Origin: Burkholderiales bacterium
GTDB lineage: Bacteria > Pseudomonadota > Gammaproteobacteria > Burkholderiales > SG8-39
Assembly: GCA_014860355.1 (NCBI GenBank)
Contig: JACZJV010000148.1
Span: 2,867-66,866 of the forward strand
DNA length: 64,000 nucleotides
Reading direction: 5' to 3'
Part shown: positions 4,802 through 57,213 of the stretch, piece after piece
How positions within the stretch are numbered: the first letter of the stretch is position 1
How the letters are laid out: each line of letters opens with the position of its first letter
Translations under genes and position numbers: made by a program
Notes under the pieces: model-generated
The model's database searches: none
Told to the model about the DNA's origin: nothing
Seen by the model: only the letters and a program-made list of their open reading frames with translations

Positions 4802-6270
4802 GTTCCAGACCGGTTGTTCCCTACGCCTTCGCCAAATCCAAAGGCGTAGTCGTCACCGATCTGGCCGACGGCCTGGCGCAGGTGGCGGTGCGCAGCGGCG
4901 CCCAGGCGGGCGCGCTGGCCGAAGTGCGCCGCGCGCTGGGCGTGCCCTTGCAGGCGAGGCGCATCGGTGCCGAGGAGTTCGACGAGCTCATTTCCAGCCT
5001 CTATAACGCTGCCGACGCCGGTGCGGCCGCCCTGGCTGACGACCTGGCGCAGGACCTGGATCTGTCCAGGCTGCTGCAGGACATCCCCAGGGTCGAGGAT
5101 CTGCTCGAAAGCCAGAACGACGCGCCGCTGATCCGTTTGATCAACGCCTTGTTTACCCAGGCGCTGCGCGAAGGCGCCTCCGACATCCACGTCGAGCCTT
5201 TCGAAACGCGCTCGGTGGTGCGCCTGCGCATAGACGGCACCCTGCGCGACCTGATCGAACCGGCGCGTGCGCTGCACGGCGCCATCGTGTCGCGCATCAA
5301 GATCATGGCGCAGCTCGACATCGCCGAGAAGCGCCTGCCGCAGGACGGGCGCATAACCCTCAGGGTGGCGGGCAAACCGATCGATGTCAGGGTGTCGACG
5401 ATCCCGACGGGGCACGGCGAGCGCGTGGTGCTGCGCCTGCTCGACAAGCAGGCCGGAAGGCTGGATCTCACCAAGCTGGGCATGGACAGCCCTACGCTCG
5501 CGTACATGGACAAGCTCATCCGCGAGCCGCACGGCATCATACTCGTCACCGGCCCGACCGGATCGGGCAAGACCACGACGCTCTATGCCTCGCTCTCGCG
5601 GCTGGATCCCAAGGCGCTCAACATCATGACGGTGGAGGACCCGATCGAGTACGACCTCGACGGCATCAGCCAGACCCAGATCAACACCCGCATCGAAATG
5701 AGTTTCGCGCGCGCGCTGCGCACCATTTTGCGCCAGGACCCGGACGTAGTCATGATCGGCGAGATCCGCGATCTGGAAACGGCGCAGATTGCGGTGCAGG
5801 CGAGCCTGACCGGACATCTGGTGTTCGCCACCCTGCACACCAACGATTCGGTGAGCGCCGTCACGCGGCTGGTCGACATGGGGGTGGAGCCCTTCCTGCT
5901 CGCCACCAGCCTGATCGGGGTGGTCGCGCAGCGGCTGGTGCGCCGGCTTTGCCTCGAATGCCGCAAGCCGTTTTCCGCAGACGGATCGCAGTTGCAGGCG
6001 CTGGGGTTCGAGCCGCGGGCGGGAAGTTTTTACACCGCGCAGGGTTGCCCCGCCTGCAACCACTCGGGCTATCGCGGCCGCACCGGGATCTATGAACTGC
6101 TGAGCGTCGACGACGGGCTGCGCCGCCTGGTTCACGACCGTGCATCCGAGCAGGTGTTGCGCGATCATGCCCTTGCGCAGGGCATGCGCTCGCTGCGCGA
6201 AGACGGCATGCGCTGGGCCGCCGAGGGCGCGATCAGCCTCGAAGAGGTGGTGCGCGTGACGCGCGAATAG
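4798..6270 (+). CDS. gspE: Type II secretion ATPase GspE
   Basis: 490 aa. Walker A GPTGSGKTTT, MTVEDPIEY, RQDPDVVMIGEIRD, and a tetracysteine motif (CLEC...CPAC). ATGA overlap with the gspD stop. Confidence 0.92.
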   Translation: MSSRPVVPYAFAKSKGVVVTDLADGLAQVAVRSGAQAGALAEVRRALGVPLQARRIGAEEFDELISSLYNAADAGAAALADDLAQDLDLSRLLQDIPRVEDLLESQNDAPLIRLINALFTQALREGASDIHVEPFETRSVVRLRIDGTLRDLIEPARALHGAIVSRIKIMAQLDIAEKRLPQDGRITLRVAGKPIDVRVSTIPTGHGERVVLRLLDKQAGRLDLTKLGMDSPTLAYMDKLIREPHGIILVTGPTGSGKTTTLYASLSRLDPKALNIMTVEDPIEYDLDGISQTQINTRIEMSFARALRTILRQDPDVVMIGEIRDLETAQIAVQASLTGHLVFATLHTNDSVSAVTRLVDMGVEPFLLATSLIGVVAQRLVRRLCLECRKPFSADGSQLQALGFEPRAGSFYTAQGCPACNHSGYRGRTGIYELLSVDDGLRRLVHDRASEQVLRDHALAQGMRSLREDGMRWAAEGAISLEEVVRVTRE

Positions 6271-10393: not shown

Positions 10394-11761
10394 ATGAAAA
10401 CAGGTTCAAACACGAAGGCGAGGACGACGGCGCGCTTCACCTATGCGCCCGCCACGCTCAGGCAGGTCGCCGCGGACTTGTTGCATCAGGCCGCCACACA
10501 GGGGGCAAGCGCATGTGAATGCGATGTGTCCGAAGGCTACGGGCAGACGGCGGTGGTGCGCAAGGGCGAGGTCGAGACCATCGAATACAACCGCAACAAG
10601 AGCATAGGCGTAACCGCCTACCTGGGCCAGCGCAAGGGCTTTGCCAGCACCTCGGATTTCTCGCCCAGGGCGCTCAGGGATACCGTGGCGGCCGCAGTCA
10701 GCATCGCGCGATTTACCGCGAGCGACGACTGCGCCGGCCTGGCCGAACCCGAGCTGATGGCGCGCGAAATCCACGACCTCGACCTGTTCCATCCCTGGGA
10801 CCTGCCCGTGGACGAGGCGATAGAACGCGCGCGCGCCTGCGAGGCCGCGGCCTTCGCCCTCGACCGGCGCATAGTCAATTCCGAAGGCGCGGGCGTCTCG
10901 ACCCAGCACCACCAGTTCATGGTCGCCAACTCCAACGGCTTTGCCGCAGGCTATCCGACTACACGCCATTACCTGTCCTGCGCGGTGATCGCCGAGCAGG
11001 CGGGGTCGATGCAGCGCGACGACTGGTACGCCGAAGCGCGCGACGCGCGCGATCTGCCCGCCGGCGATGCAATCGGGCGCTATGCCGGGCAGCGCGCCCT
11101 GGCGCGCCTCGGCAGCCGCAAGCTCAAGACGATGAAAGTGCCGGTGCTGTTCGAAGCGCCCGTGGCGAGCGGCCTGCTGGCAAACTTTGTCGGCGCGGTG
11201 AGCGGCGGCAGCCTCTATCGCAAGACCTCTTTCCTGCTCGACAGCCTGGGCCGGCAGGTGTTCTCGCCGCTGGTGCAGATCAAGGAGAGGCCGCATCTGA
11301 AAAAGGGCCTGGCTAGCGGCTACTTCGACGACGACGGCGTCGCCACGCGCGCGCGCGACGTGGTGAAGGACGGCATGCTGCAGGGCTATTTCCTCGGCAC
11401 CTATTCGGCGCGCAAGCTCGGCATGAAGAGCACCGGCAACGCCGGCGGCAATCACAACCTGATACTGCAAAGCGGGGATCTCGATCTGCCCGGACTGCTG
11501 AAGAAAATGGGCCGCGGACTGTTTGTCACCGACCTGATGGGGCAGGGCATCAACATGGTCACGGGCGACTATTCGCGCGGCGCTGCGGGCTATTGGGTGG
11601 AAGGCGGGGTGATCCGCTACCCGGTGGAAGAGATCACCATCGCCGGCAATCTGCGCGACATGTTCAAGGGCATCGCGGCAGTGGGCAAGGACGAACTGAC
11701 GCGCGGTTCGCGCCGCTGCGGCTCCATCCTGATCGAGCGCATGACCATCGCCGGCAACTGA
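10394..11761 (+). CDS. pmbA: PmbA/TldE metalloprotease subunit
   Basis: 455 aa. PmbA_TldD family features are present (GYGQTAVVRKGEVETIEYN..., C-terminal GSILIERMTIAG). The yjgA neighbourhood is conserved. Confidence 0.85.
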   Translation: MKTGSNTKARTTARFTYAPATLRQVAADLLHQAATQGASACECDVSEGYGQTAVVRKGEVETIEYNRNKSIGVTAYLGQRKGFASTSDFSPRALRDTVAAAVSIARFTASDDCAGLAEPELMAREIHDLDLFHPWDLPVDEAIERARACEAAAFALDRRIVNSEGAGVSTQHHQFMVANSNGFAAGYPTTRHYLSCAVIAEQAGSMQRDDWYAEARDARDLPAGDAIGRYAGQRALARLGSRKLKTMKVPVLFEAPVASGLLANFVGAVSGGSLYRKTSFLLDSLGRQVFSPLVQIKERPHLKKGLASGYFDDDGVATRARDVVKDGMLQGYFLGTYSARKLGMKSTGNAGGNHNLILQSGDLDLPGLLKKMGRGLFVTDLMGQGINMVTGDYSRGAAGYWVEGGVIRYPVEEITIAGNLRDMFKGIAAVGKDELTRGSRRCGSILIERMTIAGN

Positions 11762-12027
11762 GCGCTGCGCCGCAGAGTAAGGGCGCGGCGTGCCGGCCTT
11801 TGCATTCACCCCGCGCACCGGACCGACAGGCAGTTCAATTCACCGTAGGCAGCAGGGCGATATCCCATATAATCCCCCCGGCGAGGCCGGTCGGTCCGGG
11901 GCGCAGACACCGCAGTCAGGTTTTGTCGTTTAGAAGAAGAGCGCCCAGGGAAATTGCCTACAGGCCGCCGAATCAAAGGTGCGGGGAGGCGTGACTCCTC
12001 GTCTTGTTACCCAGCAAGAGAGGTAAA

Positions 12028-12618
12028 GTGAAAATTCTTCTCAGAATATCCGGCCTTATCGACGGCCTGAACGAGCGTGTCGGCCACCTGAGCTACTGGC
12101 TGATACTGGTCGCGGTGCTGGTCAGCGCCGGCAACGCGACCATGCGCTACGCCTTCGACAGGAGCTCGAACGCCTGGCTGGAAATCCAGTGGTACCTGTT
12201 TTCCGCGGTGTTTCTGTTTTGCGCGGGCTATACGCTGCTGCACAACCAGCATGTGCGCATCGACGTAATCAGTTCGCACCTGTCCAAGCGCGGGCGCGCC
12301 TGGATCGACATTCTGGGGACGCTGCTTTTCCTCTTGCCGATGGCGATCGCCATCATGTGGATGTCCTGGCCGGTGTTTGTCCAGGCCTGGGAACTGAACG
12401 AGGTTTCGAGCAACGCCGGCGGCCTCACCGTGTGGCCGGCACGTCTGATGCTCCCGGTCGGATTCTTTCTGCTGATCCTGCAGGGGTTCTCGGAGCTGAT
12501 CAAGCGCATCGCATTTCTGCGCGGCCTGATTCCGGACCCGACCGACAAGGACGAAGGCCCGAGCCTCGAAGAGCAGCTGGCGGAGGCGCTGCGCAAAGAG
12601 CGGGGTGAAACCGCATGA
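12028..12618 (+). CDS. dctQ: TRAP transporter small permease (DctQ family)
   Basis: Four predicted TM helices, upstream of and overlapping the large permease gene. GTG 12028 is preferred (GAGAGG RBS). The ORF track starts it at TTG 12004. Confidence 0.75.
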   Translation: MKILLRISGLIDGLNERVGHLSYWLILVAVLVSAGNATMRYAFDRSSNAWLEIQWYLFSAVFLFCAGYTLLHNQHVRIDVISSHLSKRGRAWIDILGTLLFLLPMAIAIMWMSWPVFVQAWELNEVSSNAGGLTVWPARLMLPVGFFLLILQGFSELIKRIAFLRGLIPDPTDKDEGPSLEEQLAEALRKERGETA

Positions 12619-14429
12619 TCGAACTATTGACGAACAACATGGCGCCGCTGATGTTCGGGGCGCTGGTGGTGTTTCTGCTGCTCGGCTATCCGGTCGCTTT
12701 CGCGCTGGCAGCCAACGGGGTCCTGTTCGGCCTCATCGGCGTCGAACTGGGATTGCTGCATCCCTCGCTGTTCCAAGCGCTGCCGCAGCGCATCTGGGCG
12801 GTGATGTCCTACGATACCCTGCTCGCGGTGCCGTTCTTCACCTTCATGGGCCTGGTACTGGAGCGCAGCGGCATGGCCGAAGACCTGCTCGACACCATCG
12901 GCCAGCTGTTCGGCCCCATGCGCGGCGGCCTCGCTTTCGCGGTGGTTTTGGTGGGTGCGCTGCTTGCCGCGACCACCGGCGTGGTGGCCGCCTCGGTGAT
13001 TTCGATGGGACTGATTTCGCTGCCCATCATGCTGCGCTACGGCTACGACCGGCGCCTGGCCTGCGGCGCAATCGCGGCGTCCGGGACGCTGGCGCAGATC
13101 ATCCCGCCCTCGCTGGTGCTGATCGTCATGGCGGACCAGCTGGGCAAATCCGTGGGCGATATGTACGCCGGCGCTTTTCTGCCGGGGATGGTGCTCACCG
13201 GCCTGTACGTCTCCTATGTCGCGGGCATCGCCCTGTTCAAACCCGCATGGGCGCCGGCCCTGCCCAAGGCGGCACGCACCTTTACCGAGCCCGATGGCAG
13301 CAGCGGCGTGCCCTCGCTGGTCGTGCTCCTGATTGTTGCAGTGGTCGTTTCGGTGGCGTTTTCCAAGTACCATTACCCGCCCGATGCGCCCCTGGACGAA
13401 GTGCTGGTGGTGTCGACTGCCGTCGGCGTCGCAGTCGCCTTTTTCGCCGCCGTGGTCAACCATGTGCTCAAGCTGGGCCTGCTGTCGAAGATCGCAGCGC
13501 GCGTGACCTTCGTCCTGATTCCGCCGCTGGGGCTGATTTTTCTCGTGCTGGGTACGATCTTCCTCGGCGTGGCGACACCCACCGAGGGCGGGGCGATGGG
13601 CGCTACCGGCGCGCTCGCCATGGCGCTGGCGCGCCGGCGCCTTTCGTTTCCGCTGTTGCGCCAGGCGATGGATGCGACGGCGAAGCTGACCTCCTTCGTC
13701 GTGTTCATCCTGGTCGGCGCGCGTGTGTTCAGCCTGACCTTCTATGGCGTGGACGGCCACATTTGGGTGGAGCACCTGCTGCTCGGGCTTCCGGGCGGCC
13801 AGCTCGGCTTCCTCATCGTGGTGAACATCCTGGTGTTCGTGCTGGCGTTCTTCCTCGATTTTTTCGAGCTGGCGTTCATCATCATCCCCCTGCTCGGACC
13901 GGTGGCGGAGAAGCTCGGAATCGACCTCATCTGGTTCGGCGTGCTGCTGGCGATCAATATGCAGACCTCGTTCATGCATCCGCCTTTCGGCTTCTCCCTG
14001 TTCTATCTGCGCAGCGTGGCCCCGGCCAAGGACTACGTCGACCGGCTCAGCGGCAAGGTGATTGCCAAAGTGACCACGATGCAGATCTACTGGGGCGCAG
14101 TGCCCTTCGTACTGATCCAGGTGCTGATGGTCGGGCTGGTAATTGCGGTGCCCGATATCGTCGGCGGCGGCATGGTGAAGAAGGCGGCGATAGACACTGA
14201 CAGGCTGGAAATCATGGTGCCCGATGCGAGTTTTGGGCCGGCCGCCACAGGTCAGGACGCCTTGGAAAACGCGCTTGAAAACGCGTTGGGCAATGATGCC
14301 GAGGCTGAGCGGCCGTCCGATGCGCAGGACGCAGCCCCGGCCGATGCAGATGCGAAGGGCGCTGTCGGCGCAGGCATGAAGGACGCAGTCGAGGGCGACG
14401 CCGCAAAGAGAGCGCCCGGCGGGAAATAG
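12615..14429 (+). CDS. dctM: TRAP transporter large permease (DctM family), long form with an inserted TM pair and a ~76-aa low-complexity C-terminal tail
   Basis: 604 aa polytopic membrane protein with DctM-like repeats. 4-nt overlap with dctQ. The tail DALENALENALGNDAEAERPSDAQDAAPADADAKG is acidic and Ala-rich. Confidence 0.8.
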   Translation: MIELLTNNMAPLMFGALVVFLLLGYPVAFALAANGVLFGLIGVELGLLHPSLFQALPQRIWAVMSYDTLLAVPFFTFMGLVLERSGMAEDLLDTIGQLFGPMRGGLAFAVVLVGALLAATTGVVAASVISMGLISLPIMLRYGYDRRLACGAIAASGTLAQIIPPSLVLIVMADQLGKSVGDMYAGAFLPGMVLTGLYVSYVAGIALFKPAWAPALPKAARTFTEPDGSSGVPSLVVLLIVAVVVSVAFSKYHYPPDAPLDEVLVVSTAVGVAVAFFAAVVNHVLKLGLLSKIAARVTFVLIPPLGLIFLVLGTIFLGVATPTEGGAMGATGALAMALARRRLSFPLLRQAMDATAKLTSFVVFILVGARVFSLTFYGVDGHIWVEHLLLGLPGGQLGFLIVVNILVFVLAFFLDFFELAFIIIPLLGPVAEKLGIDLIWFGVLLAINMQTSFMHPPFGFSLFYLRSVAPAKDYVDRLSGKVIAKVTTMQIYWGAVPFVLIQVLMVGLVIAVPDIVGGGMVKKAAIDTDRLEIMVPDASFGPAATGQDALENALENALGNDAEAERPSDAQDAAPADADAKGAVGAGMKDAVEGDAAKRAPGGK

Positions 14430-44284: not shown

Positions 44285-44807
44285 GAGTCAGTATACGCGA
44301 TGTGCCTGCGAATCAGGTGCCGCGGTGCGCAGAACCGTGGTTGATCCGGTGTGGCCCGAGCAATCCGGCGGCGTAACGAACCGATTCGATGAATGGCCTG
44401 TTACGTCGACGCGATCTTCGATCCGATTGCGCTGCGCGCCTAAGCCAGGAAGTTCACGGGCGCGATACACGGAATCCGAAGTCGAACCGCACGCGCCGCG
44501 AGATGCTGTTGCCACGGATTATCGGGAGTTGAAGGCGGCTCGCGCAAGCGCTGGAGAACTTGCCAGTTTTGAACAGTCGATTGGCCGGAATGTCAGGCAG
44601 CACCTGGCTCACGCTGCGTTGATTCTTGAGAAGCTGGCCGTCGCCTTGCGGCGGTAGGGAAGATGCGCAGGCGCCGTCGCGCCGTGCTCCCTGGAGGCGA
44701 AGGGCGGCCTAGGGTGCGGATGATCAATGAGTACAATCGGCCGCGACCTGCCGCTGGCGGATTTGCCTGAAAGCAGCCTGTGAAGCAGTGTGGGTGTATG
44801 CTTGCAT

Positions 44808-44859
44808 CGAATAGGCTTTTATCCGCCGTGCGCCAGCATGGCGGATAAAAGCCTATTCG
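44808..44859. repeat. Perfect 20-bp inverted repeat with a 12-nt spacer, 25 bp upstream of the next gene
   Basis: CGAATAGGCTTTTATCCGCC-GTGCGCCAGCAT-GGCGGATAAAAGCCTATTCG, read directly. Confidence 0.9.
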
Positions 44860-44883
44860 TTAGGCGTCAATAGAAAGGAGGGC

Positions 44884-47299: not shown

Positions 47300-47703
47300 G
47301 CTGCGCTCCTCCCTGATTGCGCCGGCGCGCTCATCGGCCGGAACGCGACGCTCACTCCTGCAGCCAGAACTTCACCGGCCGGTCGTAGGCCGGGCTCATC
47401 CGCATGGCGGTGCCGAAGGTTCCGGTTTCCACCGGCGTACGAGGCTCGTGCTCCGCAACCGGCGCCCCAGACTTTACGCCGACGCGGCTTTCTTTGGAAG
47501 TGAGCCGGCGACGGATAACAACCCGATCGCCTCGCGAGGGGCAACTCTCGGTCAAACGGTCCGGCTATACACGGCGTGCTATCGACCAGGCCCCGCCGCT
47601 GGGCCGAACGTAACACGACGCCAATGAATTGCCGGCGTACGGCTCATCGCCGACCATCAGAATGAGTTACCTGAAGGCTCTTGATCGGCCATTGCTGTAG
47701 TTG

Positions 47704-47808
47704 ACTCTGAGTGCTACCTGCGGCCGGTGTAGATCCGTCACCGACCCTTGGTCACGAATTTAGGCTGAGCGGCAGCTTTCCGTTCCGACAAATGCGTACT
47801 CCCGACCC
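47704..47808 (-). repeat. Diverged inverted copy of the island repeat family (see 53510 and 55508)
   Basis: The reverse complement reads GGGTCGGGAGTACGCATTTGTCGGAACGGAAAGCTGCCGCTCAGCCTAAATTCG...ACACCGGCC. It shares the blocks GGGTCGGGAGT and GAAAGCTGCCGCT with copy A, at roughly two-thirds identity by eye. Confidence 0.6.
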
Positions 47809-47895
47809 TGACCTGTCACTGGCGAAAATTGGGAGCGGCCCTCCGTGTGGTTTCCAGAAAGCTGCTACTCGGGGCTAAGCTTACCGCTCGGCGGC

Positions 47896-48594
47896 TCAGG
47901 CGTAGTAACGCGCCTTCATCCGCTGGCAATAGGCGTCGAGATTGGGCCGGCCCTGCGCATGGTGCCGGATCGGCGAATCCACAGGCGCCCACAGCAGGTT
48001 GGCCATGAAGGCGTAGGCAGTTGCATCGAGCGAGCTGGGCTGCTCACCGAGCATGTAGGGCTTATCGGCGAGAAAGTCCGCAACCGCCGTGACGTCACGG
48101 CAGCCAATCGCGTGAATCTCCTGCGGGCTGTGGCGGCCCATGCCGTGGCCGTGCATCTCGGATAGCATGCCACGGCGCGCGAGCGGCGGTACAACCCAGC
48201 GCAAAGGAACGGGCAACCCGCCGAAGAAGGCTGACTTGGTCAGCGCCCAGCCGTCTTCCTGCGCCCAGCGTGTGTGCGCGACCGCCCAATAGAGGTTTTC
48301 TTCCAGCAGGCGCTGGAAGGCGGTGGCCAGTGCGCGGTCTGGCGGTGAAAGAGAAGCGTCCAGTGGATCGCCGTACTTGCACTTGAGGTATTCGATAATG
48401 AAGGTAGTGTCGGCCACGACAGCGCCGCCATCGTCGATGTAGGGCAGCTTGCGCTTGGGCGCCTTCATCACGTTGCCACTGTTCACAAGTTCGTACGGTA
48501 GGCCGGCCATGCGCAGGTACGTCTCCATCTTCATGCAGAAGGGACTGGCATTCGCCAATCCGAACGCGGGTGCGAACTGGTAGAGCTTGATCAT
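47896..48594 (-). CDS. Glutathione S-transferase family protein
   Basis: 232 aa. N-terminal thioredoxin-like fold with SPFCMK..ETYLRMAGLPYE, and a C-terminal helical GST domain. Confidence 0.75.
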   Translation of the reverse strand: MIKLYQFAPAFGLANASPFCMKMETYLRMAGLPYELVNSGNVMKAPKRKLPYIDDGGAVVADTTFIIEYLKCKYGDPLDASLSPPDRALATAFQRLLEENLYWAVAHTRWAQEDGWALTKSAFFGGLPVPLRWVVPPLARRGMLSEMHGHGMGRHSPQEIHAIGCRDVTAVADFLADKPYMLGEQPSSLDATAYAFMANLLWAPVDSPIRHHAQGRPNLDAYCQRMKARYYA

Positions 48595-48719
48595 GGTGGA
48601 GCCCTCAGTGTGCGGTTGTACGAAGGCGACAGCTACTTCGATTCTGCCACTATTCGCGCGCGGTATCGATGGCGGCGGCTTGCCGCCAATCTCAAGCCGC
48701 CGGCTCTTACATCCATGAG

Positions 48720-49016
48720 TTACGCTTTTAAATCGATAACGTTCTCATACTCCTTGATGCTGGGAGGCGCGGTCAGCATGCTTCCCATCGTTGACCAGAT
48801 AGCTCGAACGTGGTCGGCCGCGCCTTCCGCTTGCTCCCGGCTCTCGTAGATGGCAACCGTGACACCACTGCCGTCTTCGTTCCAAGCCGAATAGCACGCT
48901 GCTAGCCCCTGCACCTTCTTGAGCTCATTACGCACAGAGTCATTCAATTCCTTTACCGCCGCATCCGTTTTTGATGGATCCGCCTGGGTCGTCGATACAC
49001 GTAGGTACATGTCCAT
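48720..49016 (-). CDS. Small ABM/ferredoxin-like alpha-beta barrel protein, function unknown
   Basis: 98 aa. The length and beta-alpha-beta pattern resemble antibiotic-biosynthesis-monooxygenase-like domains. There is no diagnostic motif. Confidence 0.4.
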   Translation of the reverse strand: MDMYLRVSTTQADPSKTDAAVKELNDSVRNELKKVQGLAACYSAWNEDGSGVTVAIYESREQAEGAADHVRAIWSTMGSMLTAPPSIKEYENVIDLKA

Positions 49017-49514
49017 TCCTCCTTGTCTTGTTACAGATAATCAACCTGTCCTAACAAACCGGACCACCTCAAACCTACGCTTGCCATTTGCAGCTTCAGG
49101 CTGTTTCCGATGTTCATATTGCCTCCAATTAAGCGTGGATAGACAGCACGCGCAGGCGTCTTTTTAAGAGACAAATATGAAACCGCCTCCGCGTGCGGTT
49201 CGTTCGCTGCTTTGCAGGGTGGTACAGATTTGTACCAAGAAGAGTGGGCGCTGCGGCCCGAAATTGTGTTTAGGACTCGGCCCCCCCCCAAGCCGATCCG
49301 TTATTGTTCTTTCTTGTTCCGCAAAACGAGATTACGCTTTCCTGCAAATCTATTCAATACACGAGCTGAGTGGGGTGCTCAATGCAAACAGGAATTGATT
49401 GCGCCGATGGCGCGTTGCTTAGTGCCGAACTATCCATCCTGGGTCCGCTGCACGGTCAACCTTCAACGCAAGAGGACTGTGGTTCCAAGGACCGCTTCAG
49501 CGCGACTACGCTGT

Positions 49515-50383
49515 ATGAATGGCCGGTTCGGAGAAGAATCGCCACCGGCCGGTTGTGGCCGATTGTACGCACTCGGCATGCTGTCCAAAAGCCGCCCTTC
49601 GCCCAGAGGGAGAATAATCAGACTCCGATCAACAACGAAGGAGTCTGGCATGGAATCCTCTTAATTTAGGGAACCCTGGAACAAAGGCAAGCTGGTTGGT
49701 CAAAAGCCGCCCCTCAAACCCAAGGATATCTGGGCCATCCGTATTCACCTCCAAAACGAGGGACTGGTTCGAGATCTGGCGATGTTCAATCTTGCAATCG
49801 ACAGCAAACTACGTGGCTGTGACCTGGTCAACCTGCGCGTTTGCGACATCACGCACGGTAACCAAATACTGGGCCGGGCGATGGTCGTGCAACGAAAAAC
49901 TCAACGACCCGTACAGTTTGAATTGACAGAGCCTACGCGCACCGCTGCCGCCGCATGGATCGAAAAGGCGAGACTGAATCCGGAGCAATGTTTGTTTCCA
50001 AGCCGTCTCGCCGATTCGCCCCATGTCTCTACGCGACAGTACGCCCGTATTGCGCATCAGTGGGTCTCAGCGATCGGCCTGGATTCGACGGTATACGGCA
50101 CCCATACGATGCGTCGGACCAAGGCGACGCTGATCTACAAACGGACGAGGAATCTACCGGCTGTTCAGCTTCTGCTCGGGCACTCGAAGCTGGAAAGCAC
50201 CGTCAGGTATCTCGGGATTGAGGTAGATGACGCCTTGGAGATCGCCGAACAGACCGAAATCTAGCAATCACCCGCCCGGCGGTCGCATAGCTACACCGTG
50301 CGACCGCTTTCTGGCACGGATTTCAATACGTGCTCCCGGCCAGCACCGGCCCTCGGCGATTCTTCCCCAAAGCGGCCGCTTAT
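49515..50383 (+). mobile_element. Candidate 869-bp unit: a small tyrosine-recombinase gene bounded by imperfect ~47-bp inverted repeats
   Basis: The reverse complement of 49515-49561 aligns with 50337-50383 at about 36 of 47 positions by hand. Shared core: CGGCCA..ACCGGCC...GGCGATTCTTC.CC.AA.CGGCC. Confidence 0.35.
49650..50264 (+). pseudogene. Small tyrosine recombinase/integrase with an in-frame TAA at codon 5
   Basis: GAAGGAG RBS, then ATG 49650 GAA TCC TCT TAA(49662), continuing in the same frame as FREPWNKGKLVGQKPPLKPKDIWAIRIHLQ... into ORF 49782..50264. Catalytic set present: R (LRGCDL), HTMRRT, LGHSKLESTVRYLG. Confidence 0.7.
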
Positions 50384-50719
50384 CCAATGGGCGGTTCGGA
50401 CTCCACAGAAGCTGCCGTTGCTCGGCCGCCTAACTAGCCGCAATGATTTTGACAATTATCAATATCTGCCTAGAGGCTTCTGATAAAAGCCAAGTATTCC
50501 CACGTTCTCAAATAAGGGAATGCGCAACTCCTTTCTGCTGACTTAGCGCGGGAAGTTAGACTAGGTTCAAGTTGCATTTTCGGGATACAGAGCCCTCCCT
50601 TACGGTACTTCCTGTACCACTCTGCAAGAAGCAAGAACAACAGTACGCATAGCCGAGTTCGTATCTGCATACTACTGGGCCCACGCGCGCTGTCCTTCGA
50701 CATTGAAACGGAGGCAAAT

Positions 50720-51244
50720 ATGAAATCGCCATTCAATATTAAGCTGGAAATTACCGGGGCAAGCGTTTTGGTCGCATTGGTATCGGTAGGACTGACCGCA
50801 ATCCCAGCGAGCGCGCTCGCGGAGAAGCCGGTGTCCTTCAAGGTTCACTGCATGAATACCGGCAACAGTCCACCAGAGTTGCTTGGTGATCGACAAGGAC
50901 ACTCCATCTCAATAGGCGAATACACCTGCAAAGTAGAAGGTGGCGCGTTAGACGGTGGAGTAATGACTGGTACGCATCTTACGGAATGGGATGGAGTCAA
51001 CGGCGTTGGTAAAGCCGGTTTCGGAGTCACTCGCACAGCTGGTGGAAAAGCCGTTTATGTCAACACCGAAATGAAAACCACCTTGACGATGAAAGATGGA
51101 AAGGTTACCGGCTTTCTTGCCAACGGGCGCGGCTATTACGCAGTAGCCACTGGCGCCGCCGAATCGGTCGCCGGTAAGACCTACAGCTACGTCTCAAAGC
51201 CGAGTGGCCCCCGTCAATTCATCATTGAAACTACCTTGGACTAA
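50720..51244 (+). CDS. Secreted hypothetical protein (signal peptide, beta-rich)
   Basis: 174 aa. GGAGG RBS. Signal ...LVALVSVGLTAIPASALA. No recognisable motif. Confidence 0.6.
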   Translation: MKSPFNIKLEITGASVLVALVSVGLTAIPASALAEKPVSFKVHCMNTGNSPPELLGDRQGHSISIGEYTCKVEGGALDGGVMTGTHLTEWDGVNGVGKAGFGVTRTAGGKAVYVNTEMKTTLTMKDGKVTGFLANGRGYYAVATGAAESVAGKTYSYVSKPSGPRQFIIETTLD

Positions 51245-51250
51245 ACAATC

Positions 51251-51279
51251 AGATCCCCCGCGCTTGGGCGCGGGGATCT
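51251..51279 (+). terminator. Stem-loop immediately after the 50720 gene (12-bp GC-rich stem with one bulge, TTGG loop)
   Basis: AGATCCCCCGCGC-TTGG-GCGCGGGGATCT. There is no clear T-run, so terminator function is uncertain. Confidence 0.45.
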
Positions 51280-51318
51280 AGATTGATGTCTGTGAGCACG
51301 AGTTAAGGGAGAAACCCC

Positions 51319-51792
51319 ATGAGCAATATAGCGTTATTCGTGATTCGCAGTCTGATAGCGATTCCAGTAGTTGTCGTCGCACTGTCACTGTCCTTAGCCA
51401 CCGCTCCTATCCCGGCGACGGCGGCTCCCCCGTCTATGCCAGGGGATGTTCAGATGGTACAGCCCGATCCTTCTCTGCCCAAGGAATTGGCGGCTTTCTC
51501 TGGAAAATGGGAAGGGAGTGGACTCGATACCGCAAAGGGACAGATTCAGTTCTTTCTCATCGTGGAAGAAATTACCAAAGAAATGGCAACCCTTCGTGTT
51601 TGGCATAGCGTTCATGGTTGGTCTCAGCGGGAAGCCGAGGTGGCCAACGAAAGCGGGAAATATAAACTTCGGTATAAAGGACCATTTGGTAAGAATGTGA
51701 TTACGTCAACCGGGGCGGGATTGGTTTTTGATGCACAACATCGTGATGGGAAAGCCTCTTGGTTCACTATTAATCTTAAACGCGCACCTTAA
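51319..51792 (+). CDS. Secreted or membrane-anchored hypothetical protein
   Basis: 157 aa. N-terminal hydrophobic signal SLIAIPVVVVALSLSLATAPIPATA. No recognisable motif. Confidence 0.55.
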   Translation: MSNIALFVIRSLIAIPVVVVALSLSLATAPIPATAAPPSMPGDVQMVQPDPSLPKELAAFSGKWEGSGLDTAKGQIQFFLIVEEITKEMATLRVWHSVHGWSQREAEVANESGKYKLRYKGPFGKNVITSTGAGLVFDAQHRDGKASWFTINLKRAP

Positions 51793-51983
51793 AGAAGCGA
51801 TAACAGAATCAATCCGCCTCGTGGAGCGGCCGCCGCTATCCTACTTGTCAGGAAAAGCATCATTAGCTATCGACCTGAAATGCGGAAACAGAAAAATTGG
51901 TGGGCAGCACCGCACCGTTCATAACGTGAGAATTAATCGGTTGCCAATCAAGAGAGCGCTATCTAATGAAAAAGGAGTGACTC

Positions 51984-52367
51984 ATGACTACGAGCAAGAC
52001 TAAGGTTTTTCGTTTTACTATGCTTGGGTTGATCGCGTTCGGCATGGCCGGCCTCGTGGCCGCTCAAGGCAATTCTCGCTCGTTCGAGGCGTCACCTGAC
52101 GTCTACAAAGTACTCGCGCAGAGCGATCAATATCTCGTAATTGAGATAACTTGGAAGCCGGGTCAGCGTGACCAATTTCATTCACACCCAGCCTCCGGCG
52201 GGTACTACCTCAATGATTGCAAGGTGCGCTGGCATAGGCCAGACGGTAGTTCGCGCGATTTCACGAACCCTGCCGGTCGTGCCTTTGCGTTACCACCCGT
52301 TGAATCACACTCAATGGAGAACATTGGCGACTCCGAATGCCGCGTCATCCAGTTTGAGCCAAAGTAA
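51984..52367 (+). CDS. Cupin-domain protein with an N-terminal signal/anchor
   Basis: 127 aa. AAGGAG RBS. FHSHP...G...H pattern of a cupin metal site. Signal LGLIAFGMAGLVAAQG. Confidence 0.6.
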   Translation: MTTSKTKVFRFTMLGLIAFGMAGLVAAQGNSRSFEASPDVYKVLAQSDQYLVIEITWKPGQRDQFHSHPASGGYYLNDCKVRWHRPDGSSRDFTNPAGRAFALPPVESHSMENIGDSECRVIQFEPK

Positions 52368-52457
52368 GGGCTAAGTTTTCTGGGCATGCGTCGCAAATCG
52401 CATCGGCGCAAAGAAGGATAAAGGGCGGCGCGCTGCTCGACAAAGCCTTAGGGGATC

Positions 52458-53465
52458 ATGATGGCCAAACTTAAAAGACACTTGATACTTGTTGCGTTCT
52501 TTGCCTTGGTTCCGCTCACCCAGCCTGGCACTGCGCCTTCGAACTGGGCCGACGCCGCTGGTGGCCCGAATACTGCGAAACCGGGGAGTACGGGATTTGC
52601 ATCCAAGCTGGGTAACGTCGGTGAAACGCGCACGCTCGAAATACTTCCATTGGTGGATTGGAACACCGCCAGCCTGAAGCTTCGCGGCGAGGCCGGAGTG
52701 TCCTATCTAGTACGCACCGACAAAAGCACTATTTTGTTCGATGTCGGTGGAAATCTTGAAAATAGCGACCCGTCCCCGTTGGTTGCGAACATGCTGCAGC
52801 TGGGAATTAAACTTGCCGACATCGACACCATCGTGATCTCACACAATCACCCGGATCACGTAGGGGGGCAAACTTCGATGTTCTCACGGACGTTTTCGCT
52901 GGATAGTAAGCCCGTCGATCTTCGGGGAAAGCGCGTCTACGTACCCATTCCAATGACGTATCCGGACATTGAGCCGGTTACGGTTCTCGAACCGATGGTC
53001 ATCGCACCTGGTGTTGCCACGATTGGCCCAATTACCGGAAGGATAAACATGGGTCCTGTTGACGAGCAGGCGTTAGCAATCCGGGTGGAGGGCAGGGGCA
53101 TAGTGCTGATCGTAGGCTGCGGACACCAAGGGCTTTCCAATTTGCTCACGCGCAGCACGCTACTCTTCGAGGAGCCGATATACGGCGTTGTCGGTGGATT
53201 GCATTATCCGATACCGCAGGGTCGCGTAATTGTGGCGGGTGTCGATATTCAGCGCTGGGCGACTTACGGGTCTGATAGTGGTCCGACCGCCGATGACGTG
53301 CAGCGCGAGATCGACTTGCTTGCCAGAACGGGGCCACAGTGGGTATCGTTGAGTCCGCACGATAGCAGCGATGAGATGATTGAGGTTTTCCGCGCAAAAT
53401 TCGGGCCGCGTTATCACGACCTGCGAGTGGGAGAGGCGCAACTAATCGCGGGAGTGAAACCTTAG
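52458..53465 (+). CDS. Secreted MBL-fold metallo-hydrolase (COG1237-like)
   Basis: 335 aa. SHNHPDHVGG (HxHxDH). EILPLVDW...GVSYLVRTDKSTILFDVGGN opening. N-terminal signal. Confidence 0.75.
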   Translation: MMAKLKRHLILVAFFALVPLTQPGTAPSNWADAAGGPNTAKPGSTGFASKLGNVGETRTLEILPLVDWNTASLKLRGEAGVSYLVRTDKSTILFDVGGNLENSDPSPLVANMLQLGIKLADIDTIVISHNHPDHVGGQTSMFSRTFSLDSKPVDLRGKRVYVPIPMTYPDIEPVTVLEPMVIAPGVATIGPITGRINMGPVDEQALAIRVEGRGIVLIVGCGHQGLSNLLTRSTLLFEEPIYGVVGGLHYPIPQGRVIVAGVDIQRWATYGSDSGPTADDVQREIDLLARTGPQWVSLSPHDSSDEMIEVFRAKFGPRYHDLRVGEAQLIAGVKP

Positions 53466-53509
53466 CTCGAAACGAGAGACCGCTTTCTAGCAGTACGGGT
53501 GGCCGGAAC

Positions 53510-53598
53510 GGGTCGGGAGTGACGATTCGCGCTTTGGAAAAGCTGCCGCTGGCCGAAATTTCAGCAGGCGACGGATGTCAGAGAGTACAACCGGCCAG
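53510..53598 (+). repeat. Island repeat copy A (89 nt)
   Basis: GGGTCGGGAGTGACGATTCGCGCTTTGGAAAAGCTGCCGCTGGCCGAAATTTCAGCAGGCGACGGATGTCAGAGAGTACAACCGGCCAG. Differs from copy B by 3 substitutions and 1 one-base indel. Confidence 0.9.
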
Positions 53599-53764
53599 TA
53601 GCGGAAGTTGGAGCATAGACCCCAGAGGGGCTGCTTCTGACTTTCAATGGACGCTCAGGTTTTCAGAGGAGCGGGCCGGATCCATTTACGTCCATATCGG
53701 CCTGCTCCCCGATGGCAAAGGGGGTCAATCGCGAATGTAATTATTGGTTGGCATAAAAAGCGGT

Positions 53765-55108
53765 TCAGAAAGAGCAGTTCACGTAGTGACCACTGGAACC
53801 GAAGTATTGGAAATCCGCGCGCACGTTCTGGCCATTCGTGCAGTCGATGTTGCCGTTGATGAATACGCTGCCGTTGTTGCTGATGTCGGCGGCGCTGTCG
53901 TTACTCGGGAACACGTCACCGTTGACGATCACGGCACCGTTACTGCTGCCGAGCAGGCGCACGTTGGAAGTGGGACCGCGAGCCCAGATGTTGCCGTAGA
54001 CGATGACCCTGCGAAGATCGGCGGTTGAGAGGTTGTACGCCTGCACGTTGCCTCGGACAACGGTCACAGAAGCCGGCACGCTCGGGTCAATTCGCAGCGA
54101 CGACACCGACCCGACCTCGAGCGCGCTGCCGGGGCCCGTGTTCGCAATCGTGTTGCCGCTTCCGGACACGCGGGCGGTGGAATTGCGCTGGACCGAAAGG
54201 GTGGCGCAGCTGAAGGTCGCGGCGCCGCTGATCAACGTGTTGCCTTCGTTTAGACTCAGCGCGGATCCGTCCCCGATGAATACCGCGCAGGAACTGTCGC
54301 CGGTCGCAGTGACGCGGGAATTTTCCATCAACACCGACGACGAGCGCAGTGCGCTCACCGCTGTGCGTCCGGCAGATTCGACGGCGCTGTTGGCGAGGTC
54401 TACCGAACCGTTGTCAGACGCCAGCACGGCGACTTCCGCGTTGCCTCTGATCGTCGTCGCGCCCGGCTCGTTCATGAGGTTCTTGCCGATGAGCGCCCGA
54501 GAGCCACGACCGACCACCACGCCGTTCGTACCATTGGAGTCGATGGTGCTGTTGGTGATTTCCGCAATCCCACCGCCCTGCGCGTAGACGCCCGCCTTGA
54601 CGTTGTCGCGCGCGGTGCAGTTGTCGATACGCAGGAGCCCGCCACCGATGAGCGATGCGCCGTTTAACCCGTTATTCTCGAGAATGCAATTTCTGAGTTC
54701 AACTCTGCTGGCGACCACGGCGATACCGCTAGAAGTGCCGCCGGCCAGCGTGATGTTCTCGATTTCGATCCGGCCGGGTGCCTCTACCGTGACGGGACTC
54801 TCATCGTAGCGGTCGGCTTCCTCAACGCCTATGATCTTGCTCGAACCGGGATCATTCCCTCGCAACGTGACGTCACCTCGGTGGATAGTCACGTTCTCGT
54901 GGCAAGTGCCCTCGATCAAGACGATCACGCGGCCCTTGTCGGGTGATGTCTCGATTGCCTTGTTGATGGACTGCGAGGGACAGCGAACCTTGACGATATG
55001 GGTGGTGGTGTCAGCCGTGGCGGCCCCTGAAACGAATGTCATCGACAGGCTCACCGCGGCCAAAATGGATGCCACCTTGCTGAATGGGGTGTATGTTGAA
55101 TGGGTCAT
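53765..55108 (-). CDS. Secreted right-handed parallel beta-helix repeat protein
   Basis: 447 aa. AGGAGC RBS and a signal peptide. Repetitive N/G/S/V-rich turns (NCILENNGLNGASL.., NSTIDSNGTNGVVV..) are typical of pectate-lyase-fold proteins. Confidence 0.7.
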   Translation of the reverse strand: MTHSTYTPFSKVASILAAVSLSMTFVSGAATADTTTHIVKVRCPSQSINKAIETSPDKGRVIVLIEGTCHENVTIHRGDVTLRGNDPGSSKIIGVEEADRYDESPVTVEAPGRIEIENITLAGGTSSGIAVVASRVELRNCILENNGLNGASLIGGGLLRIDNCTARDNVKAGVYAQGGGIAEITNSTIDSNGTNGVVVGRGSRALIGKNLMNEPGATTIRGNAEVAVLASDNGSVDLANSAVESAGRTAVSALRSSSVLMENSRVTATGDSSCAVFIGDGSALSLNEGNTLISGAATFSCATLSVQRNSTARVSGSGNTIANTGPGSALEVGSVSSLRIDPSVPASVTVVRGNVQAYNLSTADLRRVIVYGNIWARGPTSNVRLLGSSNGAVIVNGDVFPSNDSAADISNNGSVFINGNIDCTNGQNVRADFQYFGSSGHYVNCSF

Positions 55109-55507
55109 TTCTTGCTCCTATCCTTTGGACTCAGCACCATGAGGTGGTGCGACGCCTTCTAAACGGGAAGCACAGATGTGCCGATAAAGATGGGGCCCGT
55201 ACGCCCAGAGAAATGAACGAATACTTACCTAGGCCGCTAATTTTTCATTACTTACAGCATAGGCTGCGCGCTACATCGGCTGGGAGTCAATAGACCGAAA
55301 CTAATGAAGCGGTAGGTTTTCGATGGTTTGTTGACTAATGTCAAACGCGCTTGCGGCTTAAGGCAGGCGGCGGCTGGGAATACCATGATTTCGTCACATT
55401 GGCGACGGCCGGCGTTTCGCACGGTGACGAAGCTCAGCCGAGCACAGCCAGTGACCGCAATCGCTGCGTTGCTGCCGTTGAGCCACCAAGCCGTAACTGA
55501 CCGCATT

Positions 55508-55595
55508 GGGTCGGAGTGACGATTCGCGCTTTGGAAAAGCTGCCGCTCGCCGAAATTGCAGCAGGCGACGGGTGTCAGAGAGTACAACCGGCCAG
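55508..55595 (+). repeat. Island repeat copy B (88 nt), a direct repeat of copy A
   Basis: About 95 percent identical to 53510-53598, in the same orientation and 1998 bp downstream. The flanks on both sides are unrelated. Confidence 0.9.
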
Positions 55596-55791
55596 GACCG
55601 GCCGCTCGATGTTTTCCCACATACCGGACTCATGTCGGCTGGAGCCTGCCCGGCGCACTCGCTGTCCCTGGATGCGCTCAGATTAGAGCCCGGCGCAACA
55701 CGTTTGCTGTGTCGCGTACCGCAGGCAATCCGCACCGCAGCAGCCAGCCCATGTGGCAGGGTGGCAGGATAGTTTGTCGGTCGCCGCCGAA

Positions 55792-56607
55792 TTAGCGGCC
55801 TAATTCGAAAGGCGAGGCGATTTCGAAGAAGTCGCCTCGCAACATCGTGGATGGGGGAATGCCGAACATCTGATGAAACGTGCGTGTGACATGCGCCGCA
55901 TCAGCAAAGTCCGCCGCCTGCGCAGCCGCCGTAATGGTGCGTTCGCGCGCGATGGCGAGCGTGGCCCGCGTGAGCTTGCGCCAGAGCATATAGCGCCGAA
56001 ACGGCAGTCCGACCTGCTGCTTGAACAGATGCGCAAAGCGACTGGGCGACAGGTGGACAATTGCCGCCGCGGCTTCCAGCGACATGCGCAGGTCGGCCGA
56101 TTCGCGAATGGCATTCAACACTCTGGTCACCCGGGGATCGCGCTGCCGGGTCGGCGGCTCGCCCGCGCATAATGCTTGAACGCAGTGCCGGATCAGCGCT
56201 GGTACTGCCAAGCTTGCAAACGGCTGCTCGCAAAATTTTCGAAGCTCCGACACGCATGAAGCGAGGACGGCGTCCGGAAGGAGCGTAATTTCCTCCATCA
56301 GCGCGGCGCGCAGCCAGGTCCCTTCGGTCGATTCCGGATCCAGCATCAACATGGCGCCAAGCGAGCCTTGGCCATTGTAGGAATGCCTGGCGTCCGGGCG
56401 CACGATGATGCCGCGTCCGGACCGCCAGTCTCCGCGCGAACCCCGTATGCTCGCCATGCCGTCGATGCTGATGACGATCTGGATGGCGTGATGCGCGTGG
56501 GGCGGAACGACGCCTTTGCTGCGCCCGACGGCGAGATACCCCCCGTCCCACAAGTACCACCGCGGCGCGTCGCGCCCTTCGGGGTACTCGACCGAGTACT
56601 CGGTCAA
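55792..56607 (-). CDS. AraC-family transcriptional regulator
   Basis: 271 aa. C-terminal double HTH (LSPSRFAHLFKQQVGLPFRRYMLWRKL...ADFADAAHVTRTFHQMFGIPPS). TTG start as in the track. Confidence 0.85.
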   Translation of the reverse strand: MTEYSVEYPEGRDAPRWYLWDGGYLAVGRSKGVVPPHAHHAIQIVISIDGMASIRGSRGDWRSGRGIIVRPDARHSYNGQGSLGAMLMLDPESTEGTWLRAALMEEITLLPDAVLASCVSELRKFCEQPFASLAVPALIRHCVQALCAGEPPTRQRDPRVTRVLNAIRESADLRMSLEAAAAIVHLSPSRFAHLFKQQVGLPFRRYMLWRKLTRATLAIARERTITAAAQAADFADAAHVTRTFHQMFGIPPSTMLRGDFFEIASPFELGR

Positions 56608-56757
56608 TTGCGCTCCCGCACCCGGATAGCCGGTTTATTCAAGAACATTAGTGGATTCCTTCAATCCCTGTTACGCGGTGTTCTTTATCTTGTGAGCCAT
56701 CGCGGCGATGGACGACGCGACACATAACGTAAGCACCGAAACTCAAGGAGGATTCAA

Positions 56758-57213
56758 ATGAAAAGTCTACCGTATTACACGGCCGCAGGTTTGGCCATGC
56801 TGGCCATCAGCGTCGCCGGCTGCAGCCACGTGGCGGCGATGGCGTTTGGAACCGGCGCCACGCGTCCGGCAGCCGGTGAATTCGGGGTAGGACCCCGGGT
56901 CTCGGCGGAGCGCCGCTACGTCGCGACCCTGCAGCCGCAACAGGCACTGCGTCCCCGGCAGCTGCAATCGATGCGCGTCTCGATCGTGGACGCCCGCGGG
57001 CAGGCGGTGGACGGCGCAAATATCCTCGTCGATGGCGGCATGCCGCAGCATGGCCACGGCTTGCCGACGAAACCGAGAGTTACCAAGAATCTGGGTGGTG
57101 GTCTGTACGATATCGAGGGCGTGCGTTTCAATATGGGTGGCTGGTGGGAATTCAAACTCGCCATCCGCGGAGTGGCGGGTGCCGACACGGTTACGTTCAA
57201 CCTCGATCTGTGA
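56758..57213 (+). CDS. FixH/YtkA-like Ig-fold lipoprotein
   Basis: 151 aa. Lipobox ISVAGC. MPQHGHG..., and the GGWWEFKLAI pattern seen in this family. AAGGAGG RBS. Confidence 0.55.
   Translation: MKSLPYYTAAGLAMLAISVAGCSHVAAMAFGTGATRPAAGEFGVGPRVSAERRYVATLQPQQALRPRQLQSMRVSIVDARGQAVDGANILVDGGMPQHGHGLPTKPRVTKNLGGGLYDIEGVRFNMGGWWEFKLAIRGVAGADTVTFNLDL

Follow-up and report, generated by a model that had tools for sequence, protein, structure and literature searches.

Among described systems, the two that are functionally closest to the locus considered here are integron cassette arrays and the pdif modules bounded by XerC/XerD sites. Integrons carry a tyrosine recombinase gene beside an array of genes separated by similar, directly oriented sites, and their units can be excised as circles with one site each; the cargo of the cassettes is variable and largely of unknown function. 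In pdif modules, which are found in Acinetobacter plasmids and in integrative mobile elements exploiting Xer recombination (IMEX elements), XerC/XerD sites bracket single genes or small sets of genes. The locus lies in a stretch of 64,000 nt, referred to here as the window, from contig JACZJV010000148.1 of a Burkholderiales bacterium. Towards the right of the window, two near-identical direct repeats (repeats 1 and 2) bracket a single gene for a 447-aa beta-helix protein, and a gene from a family of 204-aa tyrosine recombinases lies to their left. The recombinase is not IntI, however, and neither attC structures nor dif-like sites are found.

The favoured reading is that the repeats are recombination sites of this recombinase family and that the beta-helix gene lies in a site-bounded module gained by site-specific recombination, for which a probability of about 55% is estimated. 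It draws on the membership of the repeats in a family of elements, their link to the sites that flank the recombinase gene, the clustering of such sites in the window, breaks in conservation at the repeat junction, and the recurrence of the same architecture with other cargo. The beta-helix gene is probably part of an exchangeable gene module, and the site family, with members of ~100-140 bp, is widespread and apparently undescribed. Feature coordinates are collected in Table 1.

The likeness to integrons lies in the position of the recombinase gene beside an array of sites in direct orientation. In the window, the site just downstream of the recombinase gene (site C) and both repeats are all on the plus strand and downstream of the recombinase, and the same holds for a metagenome locus discussed below (L065). 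However, the window recombinase has 204 residues and consists of the catalytic domain only, whereas IntI has ~320 residues and an additional domain. Inverted sites also lie on either side of the recombinase gene, and modules can contain several genes, in either orientation and with their own upstream regions. Integron attC sites were ruled out, since there is no R''/L''-L'/R' palindrome and no hairpin, no GTTRRRY/RYYYAAC ends were seen by eye, and the recombinase is not IntI. As in pdif systems, short sites subdivide an accessory region into modules, and the catalytic domain of the recombinase is Xer-like. However, no 28-bp XerC-6 bp-XerD (11-6-11) site is visible by eye in the border sequences, the sites are 65-140 nt long with a different motif and without strictly alternating orientation, and a dedicated small recombinase gene is present, as opposed to host XerC/XerD.

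Several other systems share single features with the locus. REP-associated tyrosine transposase (RAYT) genes are flanked by repetitive extragenic palindromes (REPs), and FimB/FimE-type small recombinases act on inverted sites around a segment, as in invertible switches. The locus resembles the former in having a presumed enzyme gene between inverted copies of a related dispersed sequence and the latter in having inverted sites around a segment. It also resembles miniature inverted-repeat transposable elements (MITEs), in that a short non-coding element is present in many contexts, with three copies in the window and others in 18 metagenome contigs among unrelated flanks. Unlike in MITE and REP/RAYT systems, the enzyme is a tyrosine recombinase of the phage integrase family instead of an HUH or DDE transposase, stable REP-like hairpins were not found, and the copies are clustered in the window rather than spread genome-wide. 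Neither clear terminal inverted repeats nor target duplications were seen by eye in about ten copies. Arm-less tyrosine integrases such as Brujita Int and XerT have been grouped as 'simple YRs' (Smyshlyaev et al. 2021, PMC8138268). The present family is likewise a small recombinase without an arm-binding domain that is linked to mobile DNA, but it differs from both the simple YRs and FimB/FimE in also having no recognisable core-binding domain and in being accompanied by much longer composite sites.

In a repeat search of the 64-kb window, 53516-53604 and 55513-55601 form an ungapped direct repeat with a spacing of 1997 nt. A global alignment of 53510-53598 with 55508-55595 contains three substitutions (53551 G/C, 53561 T/G and 53575 A/G) and one 1-nt indel (GGGTCGGGAGT versus GGGTCGGAGT), and a 35-mer and a 38-mer from the repeats each occur exactly twice in the window, where shuffled sequences give an expectation of 0. 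The first-pass annotation, made from the sequence alone, had described near-identical repeats with 3 substitutions and 1 indel, in the same orientation at a spacing of 1998 and around one gene, and the exact pairwise alignment and the single long open reading frame (ORF) of the interval bear this out. Its description of the flanks as unrelated needs a correction at both ends, while it otherwise stands: the family-level start of the repeats lies ~11 nt further left, at 53499 and 55497 (TGGCCGGAAC and TGACCGCATT), and the motif CGGCCAGnAnCGG extends 6-8 nt beyond the right end of both.

The two repeats share an 88-nt left part up to a common junction and then diverge, as direct repeats of the attL/attR type do. 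In repeat 1, the left module GGGTCGGGAGT-N18-AAAGCTGCCGCT is followed by the junction GAGTACAAC|CGGCCAG at 53591|53592 and by a right arm of its own, AGTAGCGGAAGTTGGAGCATAG. The right arm of repeat 2, AGGACCGGCCGCTCG, belongs to the conserved backbone downstream of a gene for an AraC-family regulator. Contigs in the Logan collection (run SRR12686320) are 100% identical to 48431-53545 (L001) and 55518-57208, and each ends inside one of the repeats, as is to be expected of repeats in de Bruijn assemblies. No tRNA, tmRNA or known RNA family was found as an integration target.

The repeats are not the only copies in the window. A third, diverged and inverted full-length copy of ~139 nt (copy D, of the D-type, as distinct from the L88-type repeats) was found in the window by short-word BLAST and alignment, and a family of such elements exists in metagenomes. 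The left module of copy D faces the recombinase. Copy D is 83% identical to a metagenome copy (L026), and it matches the hidden Markov model (HMM) of the element with an E value of 3e-35, but is itself part of the training set. Between copy D and repeat 1, the blocks GGGTCGGGAGT and AAAGCTGCCGCT, 18 nt apart, are perfectly conserved. When this two-block pattern, with 22 specified bases, was scanned against metagenome contigs from JGI, it matched 18 contigs. Eight of these contain a discrete element of ~139 nt, running from TGACCGSAAC-GGGTCGGGAGT to GGCGGCAATGGCCGA, with flanks that are unrelated between contigs, and the remainder share only the first ~60 nt. An element HMM built without repeats 1 and 2 recovers 53499-53597 (E 1e-8) and 55497-55560 (E 2e-7), so that the 88-nt repeat corresponds to roughly the first 100 positions of the element. 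The 139-nt element has no match in the plasmid collection, and the two-block pattern has none in viral contigs.

Some family members deviate from this form. Three contigs (L031, L041 and L043) represent a second subfamily, in which only the first ~55 nt (GGGTCGGnAGT...AAAGCTGCCGCT) are common and are followed by a different sequence of ~80 nt that is conserved among the three. In L034 and L038 the two blocks are embedded in a perfect hairpin. As a parallel to the repeat pair of the window, L042 has two direct copies around ~650 nt with only short, overlapping ORFs.

The invariance of the two blocks at a fixed 18-nt spacing suggests sequence-specific recognition, and the blocks can pair weakly. 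Both points would also fit a functional RNA, a regulatory element or a coding repeat that was duplicated together with neighbouring DNA and has nothing to do with recombination. Such an origin is very improbable, given that no Rfam family matches the element at gathering thresholds or at E<=1, the fold energies of the copies as single-strand DNA are no better than those of shuffles (z -1.2 to +0.5), and the consensus fold of the element (-9.4 kcal/mol) is weak and shows almost no covariation. The orientation of the element relative to neighbouring genes is inconsistent as well. The coding variant, in the GTG-initiated frame pointed out in the first-pass annotation, was ruled out: the homologues read GTG TGA, with a stop at codon 2, and the copies differ by indels, so this frame is not coding.

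The repeats are linked to the recombinase by their 3' ends. In both, GAGTACAAC|CGGCCAG is the junction motif of the sites that flank the recombinase gene, a resemblance already suggested in the first-pass annotation and upheld here by this common motif. The flanking sites are ~65 nt long and consist of a left arm GGCGGCCGCTTTCTGGCA, a stretch of ~20 nt with GTRCAAY at its end, and a right arm CGGCCAGGACCGGCC. The order site (minus), recombinase, site (plus) is present in every examined locus of the close family, comprising the window (sites B and C), three plasmids (L018, L019 and L023) and 25 metagenome or genome loci, and more distant plasmid loci (L020-L022, L024 and L025) have no clear site pair. 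A site profile was also made from five sites flanking homologous recombinases on plasmids, and is independent of the window. Its six best matches in the window are sites B and C, a solitary site (site A), a degenerate site adjoining copy D (site E), repeat 2 (E 0.016) and repeat 1 (E 0.16), the last two of which are marginal. Sites A and B also match each other in inverted orientation over 73 nt. For the 12-mer GTRCWAYCGGCC, the window has four occurrences where 0.11 would be expected (in the two repeats, in site B and in the solitary site, at 44731), a count that is not independent because the 12-mer derives from the same sites.

According to HMM scans, all seven sites of either type lie in the 10.9 kb around the recombinase gene, between 44.7 and 55.6 kb, and the other 53 kb of the window contain none. 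On one of the plasmids, the IncP-1 plasmid pRSB223 (L018), the recombinase unit at 3573-4785 is enclosed by outer inverted repeats of 112 nt with 91% complementarity. On one side, two tandem units of 103 nt, each starting with CGGCC, are inserted exactly at the CGGCC junction, where they separate the half-site next to the recombinase from the outer repeat.

The recombinase of the window aligns only with the catalytic domain of XerD (residues 129-281), with 37 residues preceding the aligned part, and has no recognisable core-binding domain. It reaches no NCBIfam cut-off (20.4 bits for TIGR02249, for which the cut-off is 265). An intact homologue (P0135) shares 95% identity with it, and the window copy differs from this homologue at the N-terminus by MESS*FREPW in place of MESPQFREPW; the frame is otherwise intact, and the stop (Q5*) reflects a TAA in place of the glutamine codon CAA. 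The gene has the look of a pseudogene of very recent origin, although a sequencing error could also account for the stop. Matches in protein databases number more than 8000. The best 120 matches are nearly all 204 aa long and 85-95% identical, and their sources include Accumulibacter and Thiobacillus. By tblastn, the family is also found on plasmids of Azonexus, Burkholderia, Pseudomonas aeruginosa, Achromobacter, Polaromonas and Thauera. A description of the recombinase family or of the element was not found in searches of the full-text literature, which is not proof of absence.

Comparison with relatives shows breaks in conservation at the junction. The closest AraC relative on a long contig is a Burkholderiales metagenome-assembled genome (L014, 88% protein identity). 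Its homology to the window runs from the AraC side to 55589, exactly the junction inside repeat 2, and no further. L014 keeps a similar right arm (CGGCCATAACCTGCCGCC), beyond which is different DNA, with a HicA/HicB-like pair at 4549-5087 downstream of the AraC orthologue. Two further relatives (L016 and L017) have a D-type element just downstream of the AraC gene in the orientation of repeat 2. In another (L015), a gene of the GmrSD family (PF03235) at 11217-14035 has a canonical site on one side and a partial D-type element on the other. The genes downstream of AraC differ in each of the relatives examined (L014-L017).

Breaks are also found around the recombinase. In a set of loci that encode an identical recombinase (P0205), the shared sequence starts exactly at the outer (GGCCGA) end of the upstream element. 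L055 agrees with L054, L057 and L059 as far as the left element reaches outward, and three different contexts lie outside that limit. Between a 187-aa gene and the recombinase gene, L054, L056, L058 and L061 differ from L055, L057, L059 and L060 by the presence or absence of an insert of ~2.4 kb, which encodes an IS91-family Y2 transposase, a 291-aa integrase and a 78-aa ORF. In three independent contexts (L054-63, L064 and L065-68), full D-type or L88-type elements lie no more than 6 kb from an intact recombinase.

In the last of these contexts, the layout of the window recurs with entirely different cargo. The four loci, L065-L068, come from four groundwater or sediment samples and encode an intact recombinase that is 91% identical to that of the window. 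Their order is a D-type element (minus), one gene, a site (minus), the recombinase gene, a site (plus) and four plus-strand genes, after which two integrase genes on the minus strand stand between two plus-oriented L88-type copies, the first of them short and the second full. The full copy, at 13957-14065 of L065, is 77% identical to repeat 1 over 109 nt (53510-53618). This match includes ~20 nt past the end of the 88-nt repeat, which indicates that repeat 1 is a complete element with its native right arm. The bracketed cargo in L065 (11586-13908, likewise in L066-L068) consists of adjacent, overlapping Phage_int_M/Phage_integrase genes of 378 and 399 aa, and a pair of larger tyrosine recombinases is thus the cargo at these loci.

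In the main rival reading, which is unlikely though not negligible, a MITE-like non-autonomous element inserted independently on either side of the beta-helix gene; the bracket would then be incidental, and the gene would not have been mobilised as one piece. Many metagenome contigs have the element in its discrete form of ~139 nt among unrelated flanks, as would be the case for a MITE. Both orientations are present in the window, two copies lie 73 nt apart in L028, the high identity of the local copies is typical of a recently active family, and the element resembles the ends of the recombinase unit without the gene, with a site-like part (minus) followed by a junction (plus). However, the copies diverge from each other at the same internal junction. 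The right arm of repeat 2 is already backbone in a relative that lacks the left part of the element, while repeat 1 retains the right arm seen in L065. Around ~10 copies inspected by eye there are no flanking duplications and no clear inverted repeats between the element ends. Conservation breaks at element ends in several comparisons, and the ordered architecture of the window is repeated in L065.

On both sides of the recombinase region, the elements of the window, L065 and L064 have their left modules turned inward. In a further alternative, copy D and repeat 1 could be ~100-nt imperfect terminal inverted repeats of a 5.9-kb transposon-like unit enclosing the recombinase gene, with repeat 2 as a spare right end from a neighbouring or earlier element and the beta-helix gene trapped between the two right ends. 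The limit that the outer end of the upstream element sets to the shared segment in L055 versus L054 and L057 would agree with such a unit. It is a distinctly unlikely explanation, however, as the downstream element has the opposite orientation in the P0205 loci, a tyrosine recombinase is present and no other transposase, and two successive right ends with a module between them also occur in L065, which suggests a regular feature and not an accident.

If the repeats are recombination sites, as favoured here, the following history is proposed. The module would span ~53592-55588, or 2.0 kb, with the beta-helix gene as its load and the repeats marking both of its ends, and the region from 44.7 to 55.6 kb, downstream of AraC, would be a patchwork of gene modules separated by the seven sites. 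Beforehand, the 88-nt left part and the backbone arm would already have formed a resident site. A circular DNA that had a complete site of the same subtype and the beta-helix gene as cargo may then have recombined with this resident site, presumably through a recombinase of the 204-aa family, and the crossover would be placed at ...GAGTACAAC|CGGCCAG... The outcome would be a complete site (repeat 1) and a hybrid site (repeat 2) in direct orientation. The native arm of repeat 1 and the backbone arm of repeat 2 form the pattern expected when a site-bearing circle integrates at a resident site. Recombination between the repeats would excise the module again as a circle. With the early stop in the local gene, movement at present would need a recombinase from elsewhere.

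A number of points weigh against this reading. The local recombinase gene is a pseudogene and lies 3.2 kb outside the repeats. The resemblance between the 3' ends of the repeats and the recombinase sites covers ~30 nt and is marginal in the independent model. Sites of tyrosine recombinases typically have a symmetric two-arm core, and such a core, with inverted arms around 6-8 bp, is degenerate in repeats 1 and 2, so that the crossover point given above is provisional; a symmetric core can be made out in copies of the D-type (GGCCGGTG-9 nt-CACCGGCC) and in more distant relatives (CGCTT..GCCGGC..AAGCG). The 18 contigs with the two-block pattern carry no recombinase, though they are mostly short, and D-type elements are missing from the vicinity of the recombinase in the Accumulibacter set and at several plasmid loci. 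As with a MITE, the ends of the element are defined and its contexts are many. The first-pass annotation had named a known insertion sequence or MITE as an identity that would speak against integration, and membership in a dispersed family with defined ends goes part of the way there. Its proposal of site-specific integration gains from the break in L014 and from the layout of L065-L068, whereas for the 2-kb unit neither an empty site nor a circular junction nor a presence/absence polymorphism was found, and the Logan contigs break in the repeats.

The product of the beta-helix gene matches Pfam Beta_helix (PF13229, E 7e-14), a right-handed beta-helix, and the N-terminus, read by eye, is signal-peptide-like, as in a secreted protein. 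The gene has 62-65% GC, in contrast to the non-coding DNA around it. Between the repeats only this gene is present, and no integrase of the kind expected inside an integrated element. The closest relative (P0001) is 96% identical and lies on a 1.7-kb contig, and the next (P0002) is 57% identical. Two homologues also count against mobilisation as a site-bounded unit: the near-identical gene copy elsewhere (L007 only) stops ~50-110 nt before the elements, depending on the boundary used, and the contig of the 57%-identical homologue (L008, with flanks of 1052 and 373 nt) lacks such an element. All homologues are on short contigs with no flanking repeat, and these are uninformative for context. 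The idea that the short contigs are assemblies broken by repeats was dropped, as they represent one identical low-coverage sequence across many samples. The 2.3-kb unit has no match in the plasmid collection. A scan of a genome collection, from which the source species is absent, with the 20-mer TTCGCGCTTTGGAAAAGCTG gave only four chance matches.

Table 1. Positions in the window of the sites, the recombinase gene and the genes and modules around them, with the basis of each assignment.
Feature	Position	Strand	Basis
Repeat 1, complete L88-type site element	53499..53620	+	sequence, alignment, family HMM
Repeat 2, same left part and junction (55588|55589)	55497..55612	+	alignment, family HMM
Copy D, third, diverged full-length (~139 nt) D-type copy	47682..47820	-	alignment, two-block pattern, HMM
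Tyrosine recombinase pseudogene, 204-aa catalytic-domain-only family	49651..50264	+	translation, Pfam Phage_integrase
Canonical site B, upstream of recombinase	49538..49603	-	plasmid-only site HMM E 7e-10; inverted partner of site C
Canonical site C, downstream of recombinase, oriented as repeats 1 and 2	50295..50360	+	plasmid-only HMM E 2e-7
Canonical site A, solitary	44696..44760	+	HMM E 0.0024 (plasmid-only), 7e-10 (full model)
Canonical site E, weak and degenerate, adjoining copy D	47534..47604	+	HMM E 0.012-0.035, marginal
Beta-helix gene, 447 aa, sole long ORF between repeats	53765..55108	-	ORF list, Pfam
Preceding module of four genes in one orientation, with site C to its left and repeat 1 to its right	50720..53465	+	ORFs, Pfam
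AraC-family regulator, first gene of conserved backbone	55792..56607	-	Pfam; relatives L014-L017

The repeats are at the right end of a lower-GC stretch from ~48.6 to 55.4 kb, with 47-58% G+C against 62-70% outside. To their right are the AraC regulator, a di-haem peroxidase and a VTT/rhodanese gene, as assigned by Pfam. The four genes of the preceding module encode proteins of 174 aa and 157 aa, a 127-aa cupin and a 335-aa hydrolase of the metallo-beta-lactamase (MBL) fold. For the hydrolase (52458-53465, or 4028-5035 of L001), the Logan record has a precomputed Pfam match to Anti-Pycsar_Apyc1 (PF23023), and a separate Pfam scan made here gave only Lactamase_B-type families; the protein may be a cyclic-nucleotide phosphodiesterase. 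The left end of L001, at 48431, lies inside a glutathione S-transferase (GST) gene near the GC boundary. Strains may differ at this left edge of the variable region, or coverage may simply have been low. Between site A and a RibD_C gene, at 44798-44873, is a near-perfect palindrome with a 30-bp stem (ATCGAATAGGCTTTTATCCGCC...GGCGGATAAAAGCCTATTCG), which gave a spurious match to mir-600 (E 0.0045).

Taken further, the locus might belong to an undescribed, integron-like platform for gene capture and module shuffling, widespread in Betaproteobacteria and their plasmids, in which the gene for a 204-aa recombinase with hardly more than a catalytic domain lies between inverted sites, and composite sites on which this recombinase acts, of 65-140 bp, with the junction GTRCAAY|CGGCC, bound modules of one or several genes. 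This wider proposal is tentative and has rather less than even odds. Were the element only a MITE, it would be a routine repeat family. A tyrosine recombinase that consists of the catalytic domain only and is accompanied by long composite sites would be of mechanistic interest. If the recombinase does exchange modules at these sites, it would constitute a second cassette system beside integrons, and a mechanistically distinct one. Near-identical copies of the recombinase that would carry it number in the thousands, and are found in environmental Betaproteobacteria, in wastewater organisms (Accumulibacter and Thiobacillus) and on plasmids of Pseudomonas, Achromobacter and Burkholderia. Such exchange would give annotators a sequence signature of module borders, and would account for variable hot spots such as the one downstream of AraC, where relatives have a HicAB toxin-antitoxin pair or a GmrSD defence gene.

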